From an uncultured archaeon (GTDB lineage: Archaea > Thermoproteota > Bathyarchaeia > Bathyarchaeales > Bathycorpusculaceae), in NCBI GenBank assembly GCA_963782915.1, contig CAWALK010000012.1, positions 288,001 to 352,000 of the forward strand: a DNA stretch of 64,000 nucleotides, given 5' to 3'. Position 1 is the first letter of the stretch; every line of letters begins with the position of its first letter. Below are positions 2,937 to 8,980 of the stretch, piece by piece. The notes beneath the pieces are model-generated. The model did not search any database. It saw only the letters and a list, made by a program, of their open reading frames with translations, and had not been told where the DNA came from. The translations under genes were made by a program, and so were the position numbers.

Positions 2937-3575
2937 ATGCCGTTCAATCTATTCCGCAAAAAGAAAGAAACAGAACAGAAAACTCTAGCAACGCCAACGC
3001 AAGAACCACCACAAGAAACGCCAACTCAAGAAGCACCACCTCAGGTTACACCCGAAGATGCGCCTGAACATATCGTCCCAGAAGAGGAACCAACCCCTGA
3101 AGCGGCACCCCAACCGGCAGAGGCTGTTGAGGAGCAACCGCAGGAACCCGAAACAGTAGTAGCTGCTGAGGAACAACCACAAGAAACACCCGCACTGGCG
3201 CCAGTCCAAGAACCGCCACAAGAGCAACCATCAGAAGCACAGCCAACGGAACAGAAACCAACCCCAGTTGAACCGGCAAACAAAACCTACCTAAAAGCTA
3301 TGCCACTAAAAGAATTAGCGGACATAGACAACGTCAAAAACGAAGTTAGAAACGGCAACATCATAATTCTACGAGTCACACCTCTTGCAGGAAAAAGCAT
3401 CGAGGACGTAAAAACCGCAGTTAACGAGTTATTCTCATTTGCCGAATCAATCGGCGGCGACATCGCACGCCTCGGAGAGGAACGTGTAGTTGTTTGTCCT
3501 AAACAAATTAGAATTTGGCGGGAGAAAACTCCAGCGCCAGTAAGGGATAATCAACCGGTTCCTACAGTAGCCTAA
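2937..3575 (+). CDS. sepF: Cell division protein SepF with long P/E/Q-rich linker
   Basis: C-terminal EVRNGNIIILRV...GGDIARLGEERVVVCP is the archaeal SepF core; N-terminal MPFNLFRKKK amphipathic peptide. Confidence 0.85.
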   Translation: MPFNLFRKKKETEQKTLATPTQEPPQETPTQEAPPQVTPEDAPEHIVPEEEPTPEAAPQPAEAVEEQPQEPETVVAAEEQPQETPALAPVQEPPQEQPSEAQPTEQKPTPVEPANKTYLKAMPLKELADIDNVKNEVRNGNIIILRVTPLAGKSIEDVKTAVNELFSFAESIGGDIARLGEERVVVCPKQIRIWREKTPAPVRDNQPVPTVA

Positions 3576-5487
3576 AGGTTTCCAGTGTAGCTGGAACTAC
3601 TGTATTTATTCCGGCTTTTTGGTCTAAGAAGTTGCCGAAGTTTAATGTTTTCTGTTTTTCGCCGTGGACTACGAAGATGCGTTCTGGTTTTGGTGTTAAA
3701 TGTGTTAGGTAGTTTACGAGTTGTCTGCGGTCGCTGTGCCCTGAGAAGCCTTCGATGGTGTTTGTGCCCATTTTGACGCTGAGTGCACCCATTTTGCCTT
3801 CGTTATCCATCATGGTTACTTCGCCGACGCCTTTCTGTACGCGTCTGCCCATGGTGCCTTCAATTTGGTAGCTTACGAAGATGATTGAGTTGCGTTCGTC
3901 TGCTGCCCAATTCTTGAAGTACTCGATAACTGGTCCGCCTTCAAGCATACCTGAGGTTGCCAAGACAATGCATGGTTCGCCTTCCATTATGCTGCTGCGT
4001 TGGCTTGGGTGATCAACAATGGTGAAGTAGTCGGATTGGAATGGGTTGACTTCTTCGTGTAGGATGCTGTGGCGTACTTCTCTGCCGAGGTATTCTGGGT
4101 AAGCGGTGTGGATGGCTGTGGCTTCGCTGATCATGCCTTCGATGAATACTGGGGCTTCCTTCATCATGCCGCGTTTCATGTAGCCGTCGATGACAAGCAT
4201 AATTTCTTGTGCACGTCCGACTGCGGGGACGGGGATGAGGACTTTGCCTTTGCGTTCAAGAGTGGTGTTGATGACTTTGGTTAATGCCTCTTCTGCTTCT
4301 ACACGGCTAGGGACGATGTCGTCTGGGCCGCTGTAGGTGGATTCGGTGATGACTGTTTCGATGCGTGGAAACTCTGTTGCGGCTGCTTCGAGTAGCATGG
4401 TTCTGCCGAATTTGTAGTCGCCTGTGTAGACGATGTTGTGTAAGCCTTCGCCTATGTGTAAGTGAACCATTGCGCCGCCTAAGATGTGCCCTGAATTGTG
4501 CAGGGTTAATCTGATGTCTGGGGCAATGTCGGTGACAACGCCGAAGCGCAGTGGAATAGTGTGTAAGACGCATTCGCGGACGTCTTTTGAGTCATAGAAT
4601 GGTGTTACACCCTGCTTGTTAGCGACATCCAAGTAGTCCAACTGGAGCATAGTCATTAAGTTGGATGTTGGAGCTGAACAGTAGATTGGTCCGTCATAGC
4701 CGTATTTGTAGAGGAATGGGACTAAGCCGCAGTGGTCAAGGTGGGCGTGGCTGATGACGACGGCGTCTAATTGGTCAATCTGGAATTCGGGTGAATCGAA
4801 CCTTGGGAAAGACTCGAAAGGTCGATTGGTGCCCGGGTGAATACCGCAGTCCAACATTACGCTGCTTTCGCGGGTTTTAAGCAGGAAGCATGAGCGACCT
4901 ACTTCTTGTGCGCCGCCCAAAACGGTTAATCGTATGTCTCCGACATCATAGGTTTTTGGTCGGAAGATACGTTCGCCGACGTTTCGCAGGATACGTTCCC
5001 GTTCTTTGCTCTCTGAGTGGAGGTAGTGGCGCATGTGAGTGATAATTTTGGATTTAATCGGCGGACTCCTAAGTACGTGGGGGCGCCATTTTGTTTTCTT
5101 AATGATTTCTTGGAGGACTGCACCGTTTCTGCCGATGACTAAGCCTGGCTTTTTGGTTTCAATGATGATTTCGCCTAGGCTGGGATCAAAGTTTATGTCC
5201 GTTATTTCGGCTTCAGGTGCGATTAATTCACGTGTGATTCTTTCCGCTTCAGCTTCTGGGATACGTACGGATGGGTCGGGGCGGATGACGATTCTTTTTC
5301 TGATAACACCGACTATCTCCGCTACGATGCTGCTTTGATCAACCAAAATTTCGGGTCGTTTAGTATAAACCGCAAGCATAGGTCCCTCGTATTCGATACG
5401 GGTGACTTCAGCTTCACGGGGAACTTTTTCTAGAATATATTGACTTATTTCTATCTTATCTCTATCTTTTTCTTGTGTTCGCGCCAC
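3562..5487 (-). CDS. fttA: beta-CASP ribonuclease aCPSF1 (transcription termination factor FttA)
   Basis: N-terminal KH domains (KPGLVIGRNG), SHAHLDH metallo-beta-lactamase motif, FSGHSD, VHGE; usual synteny with psmB. Confidence 0.96.
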   Translation of the reverse strand: MARTQEKDRDKIEISQYILEKVPREAEVTRIEYEGPMLAVYTKRPEILVDQSSIVAEIVGVIRKRIVIRPDPSVRIPEAEAERITRELIAPEAEITDINFDPSLGEIIIETKKPGLVIGRNGAVLQEIIKKTKWRPHVLRSPPIKSKIITHMRHYLHSESKERERILRNVGERIFRPKTYDVGDIRLTVLGGAQEVGRSCFLLKTRESSVMLDCGIHPGTNRPFESFPRFDSPEFQIDQLDAVVISHAHLDHCGLVPFLYKYGYDGPIYCSAPTSNLMTMLQLDYLDVANKQGVTPFYDSKDVRECVLHTIPLRFGVVTDIAPDIRLTLHNSGHILGGAMVHLHIGEGLHNIVYTGDYKFGRTMLLEAAATEFPRIETVITESTYSGPDDIVPSRVEAEEALTKVINTTLERKGKVLIPVPAVGRAQEIMLVIDGYMKRGMMKEAPVFIEGMISEATAIHTAYPEYLGREVRHSILHEEVNPFQSDYFTIVDHPSQRSSIMEGEPCIVLATSGMLEGGPVIEYFKNWAADERNSIIFVSYQIEGTMGRRVQKGVGEVTMMDNEGKMGALSVKMGTNTIEGFSGHSDRRQLVNYLTHLTPKPERIFVVHGEKQKTLNFGNFLDQKAGINTVVPATLETFRLL

Positions 5488-5492
5488 AGTAA

Positions 5493-6137
5493 TTAACTTC
5501 CTGCTTTAAGCAGATTAGATTTCTCTTCGTCGGTCAATTCCTTGTAACCATGCTCGTTAATGACGATGATGTTGTAGCTGTTGCCAGATGCGACATCGCG
5601 TTTCATGGCTGCGTTGACGGCTCTAGCGATTATGGGTAATATCTCGCTTATGGGCTTGTCTTCCTTGAATTTGTCTTCGAGGACACCGTAAGCAACCGGT
5701 GAACCGGAACCTGTGGAAACCATCTTTTCCTCAGTTAAGCTGCCATATGGATCCAAGTTGTAAACGTGTGGTCCGGTGTCGTCTATGCCTCCGACTAGGA
5801 CCTGAGTTGCTAATGGAATATAGCGTGCTTGGAATAGCAGGTTAGCGACTAATCTTGCCGCTGAAGAAACTGGGATGGGACGGTTCATGTTAATTTTGTA
5901 TAAGTGAGCGTTTGCGATTAGGATGTCTACGACGCGTTGGGCGTCAGCGACGGTTCCGGCGATGGTCATGCCGATGTGGTCGTCGATTTTGTAGACTTTT
6001 TTGCCTGCTTTGTGAGCAACATAATAGCCCATGGTTACACGTGTGTCTGATGCTAAGATTACACCGTCTTTGCAGACGACGCCGATTGTTGTGGTTCCTT
6101 TAAGGACTAGTTGGCTAGCTACATTATTTTGTGACAT
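5493..6137 (-). CDS. psmB: Proteasome subunit beta
   Basis: Propeptide then G|TTTIGVVCKDGV, plus GSGS and RDVASG; ATG at 6137 preferred over the track start. Confidence 0.96.
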   Translation of the reverse strand: MSQNNVASQLVLKGTTTIGVVCKDGVILASDTRVTMGYYVAHKAGKKVYKIDDHIGMTIAGTVADAQRVVDILIANAHLYKINMNRPIPVSSAARLVANLLFQARYIPLATQVLVGGIDDTGPHVYNLDPYGSLTEEKMVSTGSGSPVAYGVLEDKFKEDKPISEILPIIARAVNAAMKRDVASGNSYNIIVINEHGYKELTDEEKSNLLKAGS

Positions 6138-6300
6138 AGTTTGATGCTCCCTAAAACTCCGTTTTGCGGAATGCCCATCCACTAGGAAGTAGCATGATTT
6201 AATCTTTCTAAGGCATTAATTAAAGATTTCGCCAACTCTGATACAGTCATGTGGAGACGTGGGCTAAAGGTTTTTAGGAAAGTTGATGATTTTTAGTGCG

Positions 6301-6366
6301 CATTGGCGGGTGAGTGGTTCTCCTACCCGTTCCGCCAAAGAAAATAAAACCCGGGAGTAGGGAGAA
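6301..6366 (+). promoter_or_regulatory. Structured 5' leader of queT-queC; candidate riboswitch
   Basis: Stem TTGGCGG (6303-6309) / CCGCCAA (6332-6338); loop TTCTCCTACCCG is complementary, with bulges, to CGGGAGTAGGGAGAA directly before the ATG at 6367; A-rich linker between. Confidence 0.45.
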
Positions 6367-6923
6367 ATGCATTTGAAAATAGGATCAAAAAACTTAGCTT
6401 TAATTGCAATGTATGCTGCGTTGTATGCAGCGCTTAGTTATCGGTTTAGGACTTCTTGTCTTATGGGCCGCTTCAAGTTCGAGTGGCAGATTCAATGGTT
6501 GCTGCGGTGCCGATTTTTGGCTTAGCAGGCGTTTTAGGCCACACACTTGGAGTGTTCATCGCTAATCTTGTTCTCCACTGCAGGGTTACTTGACTTGTTA
6601 AACACAATACCCTCCTTTGTCATGGCTTACTTGTGTATATTATACTTACAACGAAAACAAGCAATGACTACACAGTAATCGTAACCTGCATCGCTTATTC
6701 AGCGGTTCTGGGTATAACAGTCGGCTGGATGCTATCTTACCTCTATGGGTACCCATTGCTTGTAACCATCGGCTATGTAATCATTGGAAACATTATTGCC
6801 AGCGTACTCATTGGATGGCCACTGTTTAAGGTCCTAAAAAAAGCGGGGATTCAGAGATGGTTTGAGAATGGACGGGGCAAATATGCTCATCCTCCCCAAA
6901 GTCAAAAGGAAAGTGAACAATGA
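6367..6923 (+). CDS. queT: QueT-family 7-deazaguanine precursor transporter (frameshifted in assembly)
   Basis: Re-joined frames give LALIAMYAALYAAL...SYGPLQVRVAD...LGVFIANL; overlaps queC (ATGA). Confidence 0.8.
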
Positions 6924-7579
6924 TGAATCAGGCAAAGAAATGTGTAATCGTTCTTAGCGGCGGACCAGACTCAGCCACCGTCGCTTATTGGGCAAAAGCA
7001 GAAGGCTACCAAATCTACCCCATCACATTCAACTACGGACAAATCGCCGTCAAAGAAACCCAATCCGCCCAGCAAATCGCAGAGAAACTCGGCACCACCA
7101 CCAAAATCATCGACCTCTCAAACCTCAAAACTATCTTCAGCGGCGCCACCTCACTCGTCAACCGAGACATCCCCCTAACAGCCGAATTCAGCAGCCCCAT
7201 CATCGTACCCTTCCGCAACGCCATCTTCCTCTCAGCCGCCGTCGCATACGCAGTCACCGTAGGCGCAACCCACATCTTCTATGGCGCACAAGGCAGCGAT
7301 GAACCCAACTACCCCGATTGCAGGCGCGAATTCTATGAAGCCTTCGAAAAAGCTGCACGACTAGGAACAGAGCAGGAAATAACTATTGAAGCACCCTTTA
7401 ACGGATACAAAAAATCGGAATTGCTCAAGGAAGCCGTTAAGTTGGGAGTGCCGCTTGAGCTCACATGGTCCTGCTACCGTGATGGCGAAAAGCATTGCGG
7501 AAAATGCGAGTCCTGTGTTAACCGCAAAAAAGCGTTTGCTGAAGCAGACTTAGCTGACCCCACAACGTATGAAACTTAA
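6920..7579 (+). CDS. queC: 7-cyano-7-deazaguanine (preQ0) synthase
   Basis: SGGPDS PP-loop, VPFRN, YPDCR, TWSCY and CGKCESC. Confidence 0.96.
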   Translation: MMNQAKKCVIVLSGGPDSATVAYWAKAEGYQIYPITFNYGQIAVKETQSAQQIAEKLGTTTKIIDLSNLKTIFSGATSLVNRDIPLTAEFSSPIIVPFRNAIFLSAAVAYAVTVGATHIFYGAQGSDEPNYPDCRREFYEAFEKAARLGTEQEITIEAPFNGYKKSELLKEAVKLGVPLELTWSCYRDGEKHCGKCESCVNRKKAFAEADLADPTTYET

Positions 7580-7669: not shown

Positions 7670-8980
7670 TTGCTTTTGCTGTTCGCCTTCCAACCTATAC
7701 TTTCAGCTCAAGGGGAGATAACGGCATCCAGCCAACTAGTTGATGCACGGGGTACTGGTGGCCAACTGTTCCTTGATTCACGGAATATCCCACACATTTT
7801 TTATCTACATGAAACTCAGGACGTAAGAGACCCTCCAAGCCCATTGTATTACGCTGTTTGGACAGGCCAAAACTGGAGTATAAACGTTGTAAAAGAAGCC
7901 AGCGGAAACAAACTATTAGTAGACTCAAACAACAAACCCCACCTAATTAACATCATCAATGGCTCATTCGAAGACTACCCTTTAATTGGCGACAATTGGG
8001 AAATCGCTAATCTTGGGTTATCTCCTGTGTCAGGCAAAACGCTGGCATTAGATTCAAATGGTAAACTGTACCAGCTTTATGCTAATTATACCCACATCAA
8101 TAGCACTTATACGTCTACGGTGAGCGTTGCCATTTGGACTAAGTCAGGCATGACACATGAGAAAGTAGATGAAAAAATAAGCAACTCGCCTCTAGAGACT
8201 TTGACCCCTGATTCCTTAGTTCTTGACTCCATGGGAAGACCGCATGTCACCTATACGGAGACAGCACTGAATACAATTGAGGGAAACCAACAAACATTTA
8301 CGGTTAACAATATCAAATATGCGATCTTAATAGGCCAAAATTGGATAACCCAAACTGCCGCTACAAATATGGTCTCGCTTTATCCGCGAATGAGCGATAC
8401 TGTTCTTGATTCGCAAGGGCTGCCTCACTTATGCTTTGTTTACGATAATTCAACCTATCTTCCTGATGGCTACTCCACAGATAGGAGAGTTCTTGAATAC
8501 CTTTACTGGAACGGTTTCTCATGGATCCAGCAAGTTGTTAACCCAGAGGCTCAGTATATCACTTCCATGAATCCAGTTGTTCATTTGGACAGCTTGGGCA
8601 AACCGCAAATATATTACTATAATCAAAACTATCAGGACGAAAACAAGTCGGGTTTGATGGTCGCGTATTGGACAGGGGCAGCATGGGAGAATCAAAAGAT
8701 TTGGCAATTACCGCATAATGATTACGGCTCTCAATCCCAATATATCTCCAACCTAGAATTCGATTCTAATGGAAACTTATACTTTACCTACCGTTCAGCA
8801 ATGGGGACTTACCACAGTGCATTGAGGTACGGCAACTTAACCTATGTCTCCTTAGAAGCACCCAATTTCATTGAAGTACCATCAACGCAAATAGTACTGC
8901 CGGTTCTCATTATATTCACAGCAATTTTACTGGTTGTCTGTGTCCTTGGAAGAAAAAGGCTATTATCAAAGAAAAGATGA
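7670..8980 (+). CDS. Secreted, C-terminally anchored beta-repeat (propeller-like) surface protein
   Basis: Repeated LDSxGxPH.xY units, C-terminal TM plus basic tail; true start possibly ATG 7630 with an indel. Confidence 0.7.
   Translation: MLLLFAFQPILSAQGEITASSQLVDARGTGGQLFLDSRNIPHIFYLHETQDVRDPPSPLYYAVWTGQNWSINVVKEASGNKLLVDSNNKPHLINIINGSFEDYPLIGDNWEIANLGLSPVSGKTLALDSNGKLYQLYANYTHINSTYTSTVSVAIWTKSGMTHEKVDEKISNSPLETLTPDSLVLDSMGRPHVTYTETALNTIEGNQQTFTVNNIKYAILIGQNWITQTAATNMVSLYPRMSDTVLDSQGLPHLCFVYDNSTYLPDGYSTDRRVLEYLYWNGFSWIQQVVNPEAQYITSMNPVVHLDSLGKPQIYYYNQNYQDENKSGLMVAYWTGAAWENQKIWQLPHNDYGSQSQYISNLEFDSNGNLYFTYRSAMGTYHSALRYGNLTYVSLEAPNFIEVPSTQIVLPVLIIFTAILLVVCVLGRKRLLSKKR

Follow-up and report, generated by a model that had tools for sequence, protein, structure and literature searches.

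A conserved queT–queC leader element in Bathyarchaeia as a candidate pseudoknot riboswitch for preQ0

We describe an RNA element in the leader of queT and queC on a 64,000-nucleotide (nt) stretch of DNA (hereafter the window; assembly GCA_963782915.1, contig CAWALK010000012.1, positions 288,001 to 352,000) from an uncultured archaeon of the class Bathyarchaeia, family Bathycorpusculaceae. Judged by comparison among homologues, the element is a real and strongly conserved cis-regulatory RNA, and most likely represents an undescribed, archaea-specific riboswitch class. We consider it likely that this RNA forms an H-type pseudoknot that switches translation of queT–queC off on sensing preQ0 or a close relative. 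A sequence-only reading of the window had proposed an archaeal translational OFF switch of the preQ0/preQ1 type at this site, and conservation, covariation of both the stem P1 and the pairing between loop and Shine–Dalgarno (SD) region, and gene context all support that candidate.

Our comparisons draw on 75 homologous elements aligned with MAFFT without fitting to a structure (alignment A1), from which a covariance model (R1) was built. A second alignment (A2) was fitted to the model, and 47 further, divergent matches were aligned to it and are thus biased towards it. Two pattern matches that lack the element (L130, L155) were left out of the counts, and three weak or degenerate model matches (L214, L195:1214, L210) were kept in A2 and in the P1 count over the 47 matches and omitted from the promoter, outer-pair and 114-sequence duplex counts. 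Homologous elements are 62–72 nt long, and 21 columns are invariant across the 75 sequences of A1. In the window the element occupies the end of an intergenic region (6183–6366) flanked by a minus-strand proteasome subunit gene on one side and by plus-strand queT–queC on the other. Its parts are as follows.

6303–6371, plus strand: whole conserved RNA element, from the covariance-model match
6303–6310, plus strand: 5′ strand of P1 (S1), with TTGGCGG at 6303–6309 and the core GGCGG at 6305–6309
6310–6331, plus strand: whole loop as read from the sequence, GUGAGUGG-UUCUCCU-ACCCGUU
6311–6317, plus strand: L1, UGAGUGG, with hardly any variation and left unpaired by the model we favour
6318–6324, plus strand: anti-SD UUCUCCU, 5′ strand of the pseudoknot helix S2b, pairing with 6360–6366
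6326–6331, plus strand: L2 region CCCGUU, with CCG and UU invariant in A1
6332–6338, plus strand: 3′ strand of P1 (S1), CCGCCAA, made up of the core CCGCC (6332–6336) and AA
6339–6351, plus strand: L3, an A-rich linker ending in invariant AAA-n-CC
6352–6359, plus strand: CGGG, 3′ strand of the candidate helix S2a, and an AGUA spacer, from alignment A1
6360–6366, plus strand: SD region GGGAGAA, 3′ strand of S2b, directly 5′ of the ATG
6352–6366, plus strand: the combined tail CGGG-AGUA-GGGAGAA, abutting the ATG at 6367–6369

The segments singled out by the sequence-only reading are all present: a stem of seven base pairs (TTGGCGG, 6303–6309, with CCGCCAA, 6332–6338), a loop segment TTCTCCTACCCG (6318–6329), an A-rich linker (6337–6349) and CGGGAGTAGGGAGAA (6352–6366) immediately before the ATG at 6367–6369. 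All seven pairs can form here, but only five are conserved among homologues; of 115 sequences, 74 have a standard sixth pair on the outer side and 52 a seventh, and the outer bases U6303 and U6304 make lineage-specific pairs. The five core pairs are formed in 75/75 sequences of A1, with compensatory changes from GC to CG (9/75) and from GC to UA (2/75). Of the 47 more divergent matches, 15 have A-U as the outer pair and 10 have C-G as the inner one. P1 therefore covaries, both in A1 and in the model-aligned matches. A closing G.U pair between G6310 and U6331 is possible, and P1 together with this invariant G.U pair is the only nested helix predicted by RNAalifold.

The second helix, formed between the loop and the SD, was proposed in the sequence-only reading as an H-type pseudoknot hiding the ribosome-binding site, and this pairing both covaries and is more stable than pairings between permuted partners. 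Columns 21–27 of A1 pair with columns 66–72 in 91.9% of cells, and five of the seven pairs are changed on both sides; the pair 21–72 alone occurs as GC (16), UA (12), GU (7), CG (3), UG (3) and AU (1). Co-varying anti-SD:SD combinations include UUCUCCU:GGGAGAA in this window, UGCUUCCC:GGGAGGCA, UUCACCUCC:GGAGGUGAA and GUCUC:GAGAC. The covariation score is 0.309 against 0.157 ± 0.010 in shuffled alignments (0/500 shuffles reach the observed value), and the mean stability of loop:SD duplexes is −12.28 kcal/mol for cognate pairs and −10.80 ± 0.23 kcal/mol for permuted partners (0/1,000), or −14.59 against −13.19 ± 0.19 kcal/mol over 114 sequences (0/2,000), although such shuffle tests overstate support because the sequences are related and hence not independent. 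Control helices with the partner slid by one to three columns score at most 0.12. In this window the duplex 6318–6324/6360–6366 has a predicted stability of −9.9 kcal/mol. We are highly confident that a conserved, SD-sequestering pseudoknot is encoded here.

The alternative hairpin of the sequence-only reading (CGGGT-GAG/CTC-CT-ACCCG), which would tie up the anti-SD instead, did not hold as a conserved structure. Its columns in A1 (5–12 with 23–32) are 94.5% paired, but no compensatory pairs were found (0), nine of 75 sequences break it at G7, a position that covaries within P1, and on each measure all 500 shuffles reach the observed value. Two other readings of the leader were also set aside. 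A kink-turn at the GUG bulge requires GA opposite the bulge, and the opposite strand has UU, as judged by eye. A leader peptide, encoded by a 14-codon open reading frame (ORF) starting at TTG over the stem, does not fit loop lengths that differ among homologues by non-multiples of three.

The element is conserved far above the intergenic background. When positions 6190–6460 were compared with 60 relatives by blastn, a core (6302–6364) was found in most genomes of the genus and at 73–94% identity in other families of the order, and the flanks of this core were not conserved. R1 finds a single copy in this genome, a 3.28-Mb assembly (6303–6371, 70.4 bits, E = 1.4e-16); we regard a second match on contig C25 (16.8 bits, E = 0.23) as noise. 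Across the class Bathyarchaeia, with genomes assigned by record titles, R1 has matches in 93 of the 151 genomes sampled (53 of 79 genera), with one copy in most genomes and two or three in a few. Across the phylum 28 of 151 sampled genomes match, 15 of them outside the class: 9/15 in family f44, 3/3 in f56, 2/2 in f60 and one more. The out-of-class copies are almost identical, with few positions off the consensus. Orthologous leaders are thus conserved across the class and beyond it, as the earlier proposal of a riboswitch would lead one to expect.

A scan for an IUPAC pattern of two boxes over one genome per prokaryote species returned at least 121 stretches. Among the matches listed, the complete element is present in 38, of which 36 have the tail box and two are the variants L090 and L103; all 38 are in archaeal metagenome-assembled genomes titled Bathyarchaeia or Bathyarchaeota, Methanomethylicota in one case, 'Nitrososphaerota' or 'archaeon'. 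The other 83 listed stretches, judged by the tail box alone, are box-only chance matches with no tail box and GC-rich sequence downstream; most listed records are bacterial, record titles having been seen for 80 of the 121 stretches.

Upstream of the element lies a promoter-like signal, which includes the T-rich box noted in the sequence-only reading (TTTTTAGG, 6271–6278, with TAAAG just before it).

6266–6278, plus strand: putative promoter, TAAAG resembling the B recognition element (BRE) and TATA-like TTTTTAGG, from the sequence and its fixed position in homologues

Over 115 upstream regions, no two of them identical, A-rich sequence occupies −40 to −36 and T/A-rich sequence −34 to −28 from the first G of P1, a layout that putatively represents an archaeal BRE plus TATA box. 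Applying the usual archaeal distance from TATA box to start, transcription is likely to begin 3–6 nt 5′ of P1, at about 6299–6302 in this window, and thus upstream of the stem rather than downstream of it. Because the BRE/TATA-like signal sits at a fixed distance, the element would lie at the 5′ end of the mRNA. A search of public sequencing runs for this sequence turned up no RNA run.

Gene context ties the element to 7-deazaguanine metabolism. In this window it is followed, as the sequence-only reading had it, by queT and queC; both genes are there and queC is intact, but the queT ORF from the ATG at 6367 is only 52 codons long, a defect to which we return below.

6367–6923, plus strand: queT, S component of the energy-coupling factor (ECF) type (Pfam QueT, 52.9 bits), frameshifted in the assembly
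6920–7579, plus strand: queC (7-cyano-7-deazaguanine synthase), intact, its start overlapping the end of queT

The product of queC scores 213.4 bits with Pfam QueC and 195.2 bits with NCBIfam TIGR00364 (cut-off 150.3). Among 112 automatically called ORFs downstream of homologous elements, 101 encode QueT (Pfam, E ≤ 0.001), 99 of them above the gathering cut-off. Two more (L070, L081) encode radical-SAM proteins whose five best NCBIfam matches are all QueE (E = 1e-16 to 1e-31, below equivalog cut-offs), which brings the 7-deazaguanine genes to 103 of 112. Four others were mis-called: L036, L054 and L175 start QueT-like in another frame, as judged by eye, and L007 is a frameshifted queT. Three-frame translations read by eye show queC directly after queT in L007 and L122, as here, and a shortened queT followed by a QueC-like ORF is found in L031 and L204. 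The element therefore precedes several genes of one pathway (QueT, QueE-like, and queC after a truncated queT), and its presence before queE-like genes strengthens its earlier interpretation as a leader of 7-deazaguanine genes. Two generic hallmarks of riboswitches, a covarying structured element in the 5′ leader and association with several genes of one pathway, are both found here.

The remaining five of the 112 ORFs encode a membrane protein of 232–234 amino acids that belongs to no Pfam or NCBIfam family.

L066, 75–770, minus strand: 232–234-amino-acid membrane protein
L186, 1565–2260, plus strand: same protein
L189, 1568–2269, plus strand: same protein
L196, 1568–2269, plus strand: same protein
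L156, 1–270, minus strand: same protein

BLASTP detected no similarity of this protein to QueT. A protein atlas places it beside clusters named 'ECF transporter S component' (score 0.94, 212 shared features), a match to be taken as a lead only. We put this protein forward as a candidate new 7-deazaguanine transporter.

As a separate observation on translation starts, ATG, GTG and TTG are all missing from the expected start of several queT homologues that follow an intact element: CTG is found in L122 and L134, ATT in L032, and ATA in L135 and L174. These codons occupy the site of the TTG or ATG of relatives.

In the mechanism we propose, S1 would form between GGCGG (6305–6309) and CCGCC (6332–6336), and the anti-SD of its loop (6318–6324) would pair with the SD (6360–6366) just before the ATG. 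Loop CCCG (6326–6329) probably also pairs with CGGG (6352–6355), and the A-rich linker (6339–6351) would connect both helices. The invariant, unpaired UGAGUGG, UU and AAA-n-CC may build a ligand pocket at the helix junction. An abundant 7-deazaguanine end product, most likely preQ0, would then stabilize the pseudoknot and keep the SD buried, and less transporter would be translated.

The same conservation, covariation and gene association would be seen if the pseudoknot were instead a translational operator, bound by a protein (a regulator or a pathway member) that signals 7-deazaguanine status, the RNA itself binding no small molecule. However, there is no conserved candidate regulator gene beside the element; nearby in the window, on the other strand, are the genes for a proteasome subunit and for the termination factor FttA. 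Moreover, about 20 invariant unpaired nt in a 65-nt, SD-hiding pseudoknot with an A-rich linker, placed before the genes of one metabolite, repeat the pattern of small bacterial preQ1 riboswitches as set out in passages of a family review (PMC11625349). We thus find a protein-dependent operator unlikely.

As to the ligand of the proposed preQ0 switch, QueC and the archaeosine tRNA-guanine transglycosylase (arcTGT) are present in this genome; neither QueF nor QueD was found in the 93.5% complete assembly, in which absences are not proof, and QueE is represented by weak radical-SAM matches only, with no clear QueE. The organism may therefore depend on import, salvaging preQ0 or 7-carboxy-7-deazaguanine (CDG) rather than making it from GTP. 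In the sections drawn on here, PMC5372724 treats queT, qrtT and yhhQ, presents preQ0 salvage in archaea as likely and states that archaea use preQ0 for archaeosine. Because this genome shows no QueF, preQ0 would be the final free base of the pathway, and because archaea insert preQ0 into tRNA and QueF was not found, it is the most plausible effector.

Apart from the relatedness that inflates the shuffle tests, several points weigh against the reading of this element as a preQ0-sensing switch. Ligand binding, structural switching and an effect on expression are proposals made from sequence. CDG, the substrate of QueC, could be the compound both imported and sensed, as neither QueD nor a clear QueE was found. 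More broadly, a riboswitch of the same architecture might recognize CDG, preQ1, guanine, archaeosine base or queuine. The recurrence of a queT–queC operon suits this idea, and an organism in whose genome QueD, clear QueE and QueF were not found could conceivably import CDG and then carry out the QueC step. Yet the element also stands before queE-like genes (L070, L081), which act upstream of CDG and fit feedback by a late product, and preQ1 is unlikely where no QueF was detected, given an assembly 93.5% complete. We hold such another ligand to be improbable.

Folding energy adds nothing in favour of the element. The leader of this window has a minimum free energy of −22.2 kcal/mol (z = −0.41), and because 69 of 200 shuffles are equally or more stable, there is no thermodynamic signal from the single leader; we regard the element as real because homologues conserve it, and not because of its fold energy. 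GC content is 53% in the leader (61% in the P1 hairpin), compared with 37% in the remaining intergenic region and 46% in the window. This ordinary energy would suit a structure that acts without a ligand, such as constitutive anti-SD:SD pairing or an RNA thermometer that damps translation of a membrane protein or stabilizes the mRNA, as an upstream anti-SD can hide the SD unaided. A plain anti-SD hairpin would, however, have no need of the UGAGUGG, CCGUU and AAA-n-CCCGG boxes that are invariant across classes, and confinement to 7-deazaguanine genes (103 of 112) would be unexpected. Ligand-independent structure is in our view very unlikely.

The exact arrangement of pocket and helices is held with low confidence. 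The columns of L1 are invariant or at least 90% conserved in A1, AAA and CCC of L3 are unchanged in 75/75 sequences (the length of this linker differs by lineage), and C residues at 6350–6351, unpaired in the model, are invariant as well. Because most of the core is invariant, covariation cannot place L1, L2 and the CCCGG box, and the CCG box has three possible pairings that exclude one another, each about 90% paired. In the candidate S2a, CCCG (6326–6329) pairs with CGGG (6352–6355); three of its pairs are constant, and the fourth occurs as CG (39 sequences), UA (8) or unpaired (27). Alternatively, CCG of L2 may pair with UGG of L1, the helix AGUGG(G):(C)CCGUU being 89% paired in A1 and 92% in the model-fitted A2, or GUGG may pair with CCAC (93% paired). 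These last two are mutually exclusive and show little covariation.

We favour pairing of the CCG box with the tail, which extends the pseudoknot through S2a as in the sequence-only reading, over the inner helices, for three reasons. It is kept in short-loop lineages without the GG of L1, in which the L1:L2 helix AGUGG(G):(C)CCGUU cannot form. In one lineage the small internal loop is shortened on its two strands at once (A/AGUA to none/UU), the AGUA spacer being reduced to UU where the 5′ strand has no A after the anti-SD. Finally, the resulting loop lengths are typical of a classical H-type pseudoknot: L2 would have 1–2 nt, L3 7–15 nt opposite an S1 of 5–7 base pairs (bp), and L1 7–12 nt opposite an S2 of about 11 bp.

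Natural variants do not all fit this arrangement. L208–L213, from one family-level group, lack the CGG of the candidate S2a; in these sequences GUGGUUG stands in L1 and CCCCAAAA replaces CCCCGG in the tail. L205 (in genome G194) and L206 (the second copy in G146) lack four bases of the GUGAG box of L1. These variants bear also on the idea that the leader mimics a tRNA D-arm and is bound by arcTGT, or has a base exchanged by it. arcTGT is present in the genome, and AGUGG of L1 has what we take to be a likeness, in sequence only, to the tRNA D-loop A14-G15-Y-G18-G19. However, the A is deleted or changed in functional-looking variants (GUG-GUGGG, GUGGGGGG, GUGGUUG), L205 and L206 are without most of the box, and no acceptor-stem-like partner is evident. 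We give this D-arm mimicry almost no credence. The variant elements L205, L206 and L208–L213 may serve as natural mutants for work on the structure of the proposed pseudoknot.

The distribution of the element supplies further points on the opposing side. It was not found by R1 in 58 of the 151 genomes of the class sample. This genome has two more weak QueT-family matches (36.5 and 33.4 bits) side by side at G000:C15:309669-310870 (L002, L003), and R1 detected no element before either of these QueT-like genes. Their products may be other ECF S components.

Finally, the regulated queT is frameshifted here, so its function in this organism is not to be assumed. Its Pfam match spans one TGA and one TAG, and in three-frame translation the protein can be followed to 6923 through frames 0, 1, 2, 0 and 2. 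Aligned with six intact relatives, the gene shows about five surplus bases in the stretch from 6434 to about 6665. Contigs of two public sequencing runs from one study (X1, X2; 95–99% identical) are without the extra bases near 6434 and 6451/6452 and are in frame there; the public-run contigs span 6150–6552 only, and the share of sampled words present in any one run was at most 0.26. Other genes of the same assembly are affected: arcTGT is split over two frames by one extra base (G000:C3:3865-4840, L224), and two class-I aminoacyl-tRNA synthetase loci (G000:C17:252-1971 and C23:98872-100531) have in-match stops or frame changes; RpoB is clean of frameshifts. Among relatives, queT is also frameshifted in L007 (three shifts) and L008 (one). 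Genuine decay of queT is the alternative, and we consider assembly or basecalling indels likelier because essential genes cannot be pseudogenes and yet show the same defects. This pattern suggests scattered indel errors across the assembly.

We considered, and rejected, the idea that in-phase CTT is a site of four-base decoding or of programmed +1 frameshifting. Three of the extra bases can be placed after CTT, but X1 and X2 put the differences at 6434 and 6451/6452, and CTT followed by G is read normally elsewhere in queT, so the pattern is an effect of gap placement. Separately, the A-run between SD and ATG (6364–6366) varies in length among close populations: a contig of run X3 has one A more, and a contig of run X6 lacks one.

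The other neighbours in the window are two housekeeping genes divergent from the leader and an ORF directly 3′ of queC.

3562–5487, minus strand: gene for an FttA/aCPSF1-type beta-CASP termination factor
5493–6182, minus strand: proteasome subunit gene
7670–8980, plus strand: ORF of 436 amino acids with no Pfam family

The product of this last ORF has a C-terminal hydrophobic stretch followed by basic residues.

If the preQ0 switch is as we propose, it would add a new RNA fold for 7-deazaguanine recognition, in the form of a compact and very strongly conserved aptamer, about 65 nt long, that most of the Bathyarchaeia sampled carry, and archaea would control the supply of an archaeosine precursor through RNA. 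It would also offer a natural SD-sequestering switch for studying and engineering the translation of leadered archaeal mRNAs, and would help to annotate downstream genes, including a transporter-like protein family without assignment.

The known 7-deazaguanine riboswitches are the obvious standard of comparison. To our knowledge, Archaea have very few documented riboswitch classes. Our search of the full-text literature, with subscription-only papers and supplements outside its scope, found no archaeal preQ0/preQ1 riboswitch. Rfam 15, including the PreQ1, preQ1-II and preQ1-III models (RF00522, RF01054, RF02680), gave no match at E ≤ 10 in 5500–7500 save two chance matches to CRISPR repeats, and none, preQ1 classes included, in 20 diverse homologue loci (38,288 bases); over the whole window at gathering score it gave two tRNAs only and no preQ1 family. 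The element thus lies outside the known classes. In the 2024 review of the preQ1 family, three classes are described, bacterial taxa are named for classes II and III, and the word 'archaea' occurs zero times in the text (PMC11625349). The balance of evidence tips slightly towards the fuller claim that the element adds a fourth structural class to the 7-deazaguanine riboswitches. It would be the first such class restricted to Archaea, and also the first to have preQ0, the archaeosine precursor, rather than preQ1 as its natural ligand. Distributed over Bathyarchaeia and at least three other families of the phylum, it would also point to an uncharacterized ECF-S-like membrane protein family as a new 7-deazaguanine transporter.

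preQ1-III (RF02680) resembles the element in its position upstream of queT and in the docking of a hairpin-loop anti-SD on a 3′ SD, but it is about 100 nt long with five helices, keeps its aptamer apart from the expression platform and is assigned to Ruminococcaceae (PMC11625349). preQ1-II (RF01054, the COG4708/queT motif) is likewise found upstream of queT, acts on translation only, buries the whole SD and has a similar length (about 70–80 nt). Its fold, however, is an HLout pseudoknot of four paired regions, including an inserted hairpin P4, with U-A-U triples in the pocket floor, and it is confined to Bacillota (PMC11625349, PMC11602147; the latter covers the binding pockets of classes II and III), whereas RNAalifold predicts no nested helix besides P1 in the element.

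The closest likeness is to preQ1-I (RF00522, types 1–3), especially to type 3, in which the SD is fully occluded. In the favoured model the element has the topology of preQ1-I, an H-type pseudoknot with a P1 of 5 bp, a loop that pairs with the 3′ tail and an A-rich linker, but differs from it in size, loop lengths and conserved nucleotides; both stand in the 5′ leader of genes for transport or synthesis of Q precursors, with the SD in or beside the second helix (PMC11625349). The preQ1-I ligand is a 7-deazaguanine, and known members also bind preQ0, according to the same passages (PMC11625349). In preQ1-I a loop cytidine contacts preQ1; the element has its invariant C residues, unpaired in the model, at 6350–6351. 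The element differs in length (about 65 nt against about 34 nt), in its much longer L1 (7–12 nt) and in its longer second helix (about 7 plus 3–4 bp). Its core is GC-rich and carries other invariant boxes, its hosts are archaea, and its presumed ligand is preQ0 rather than preQ1.

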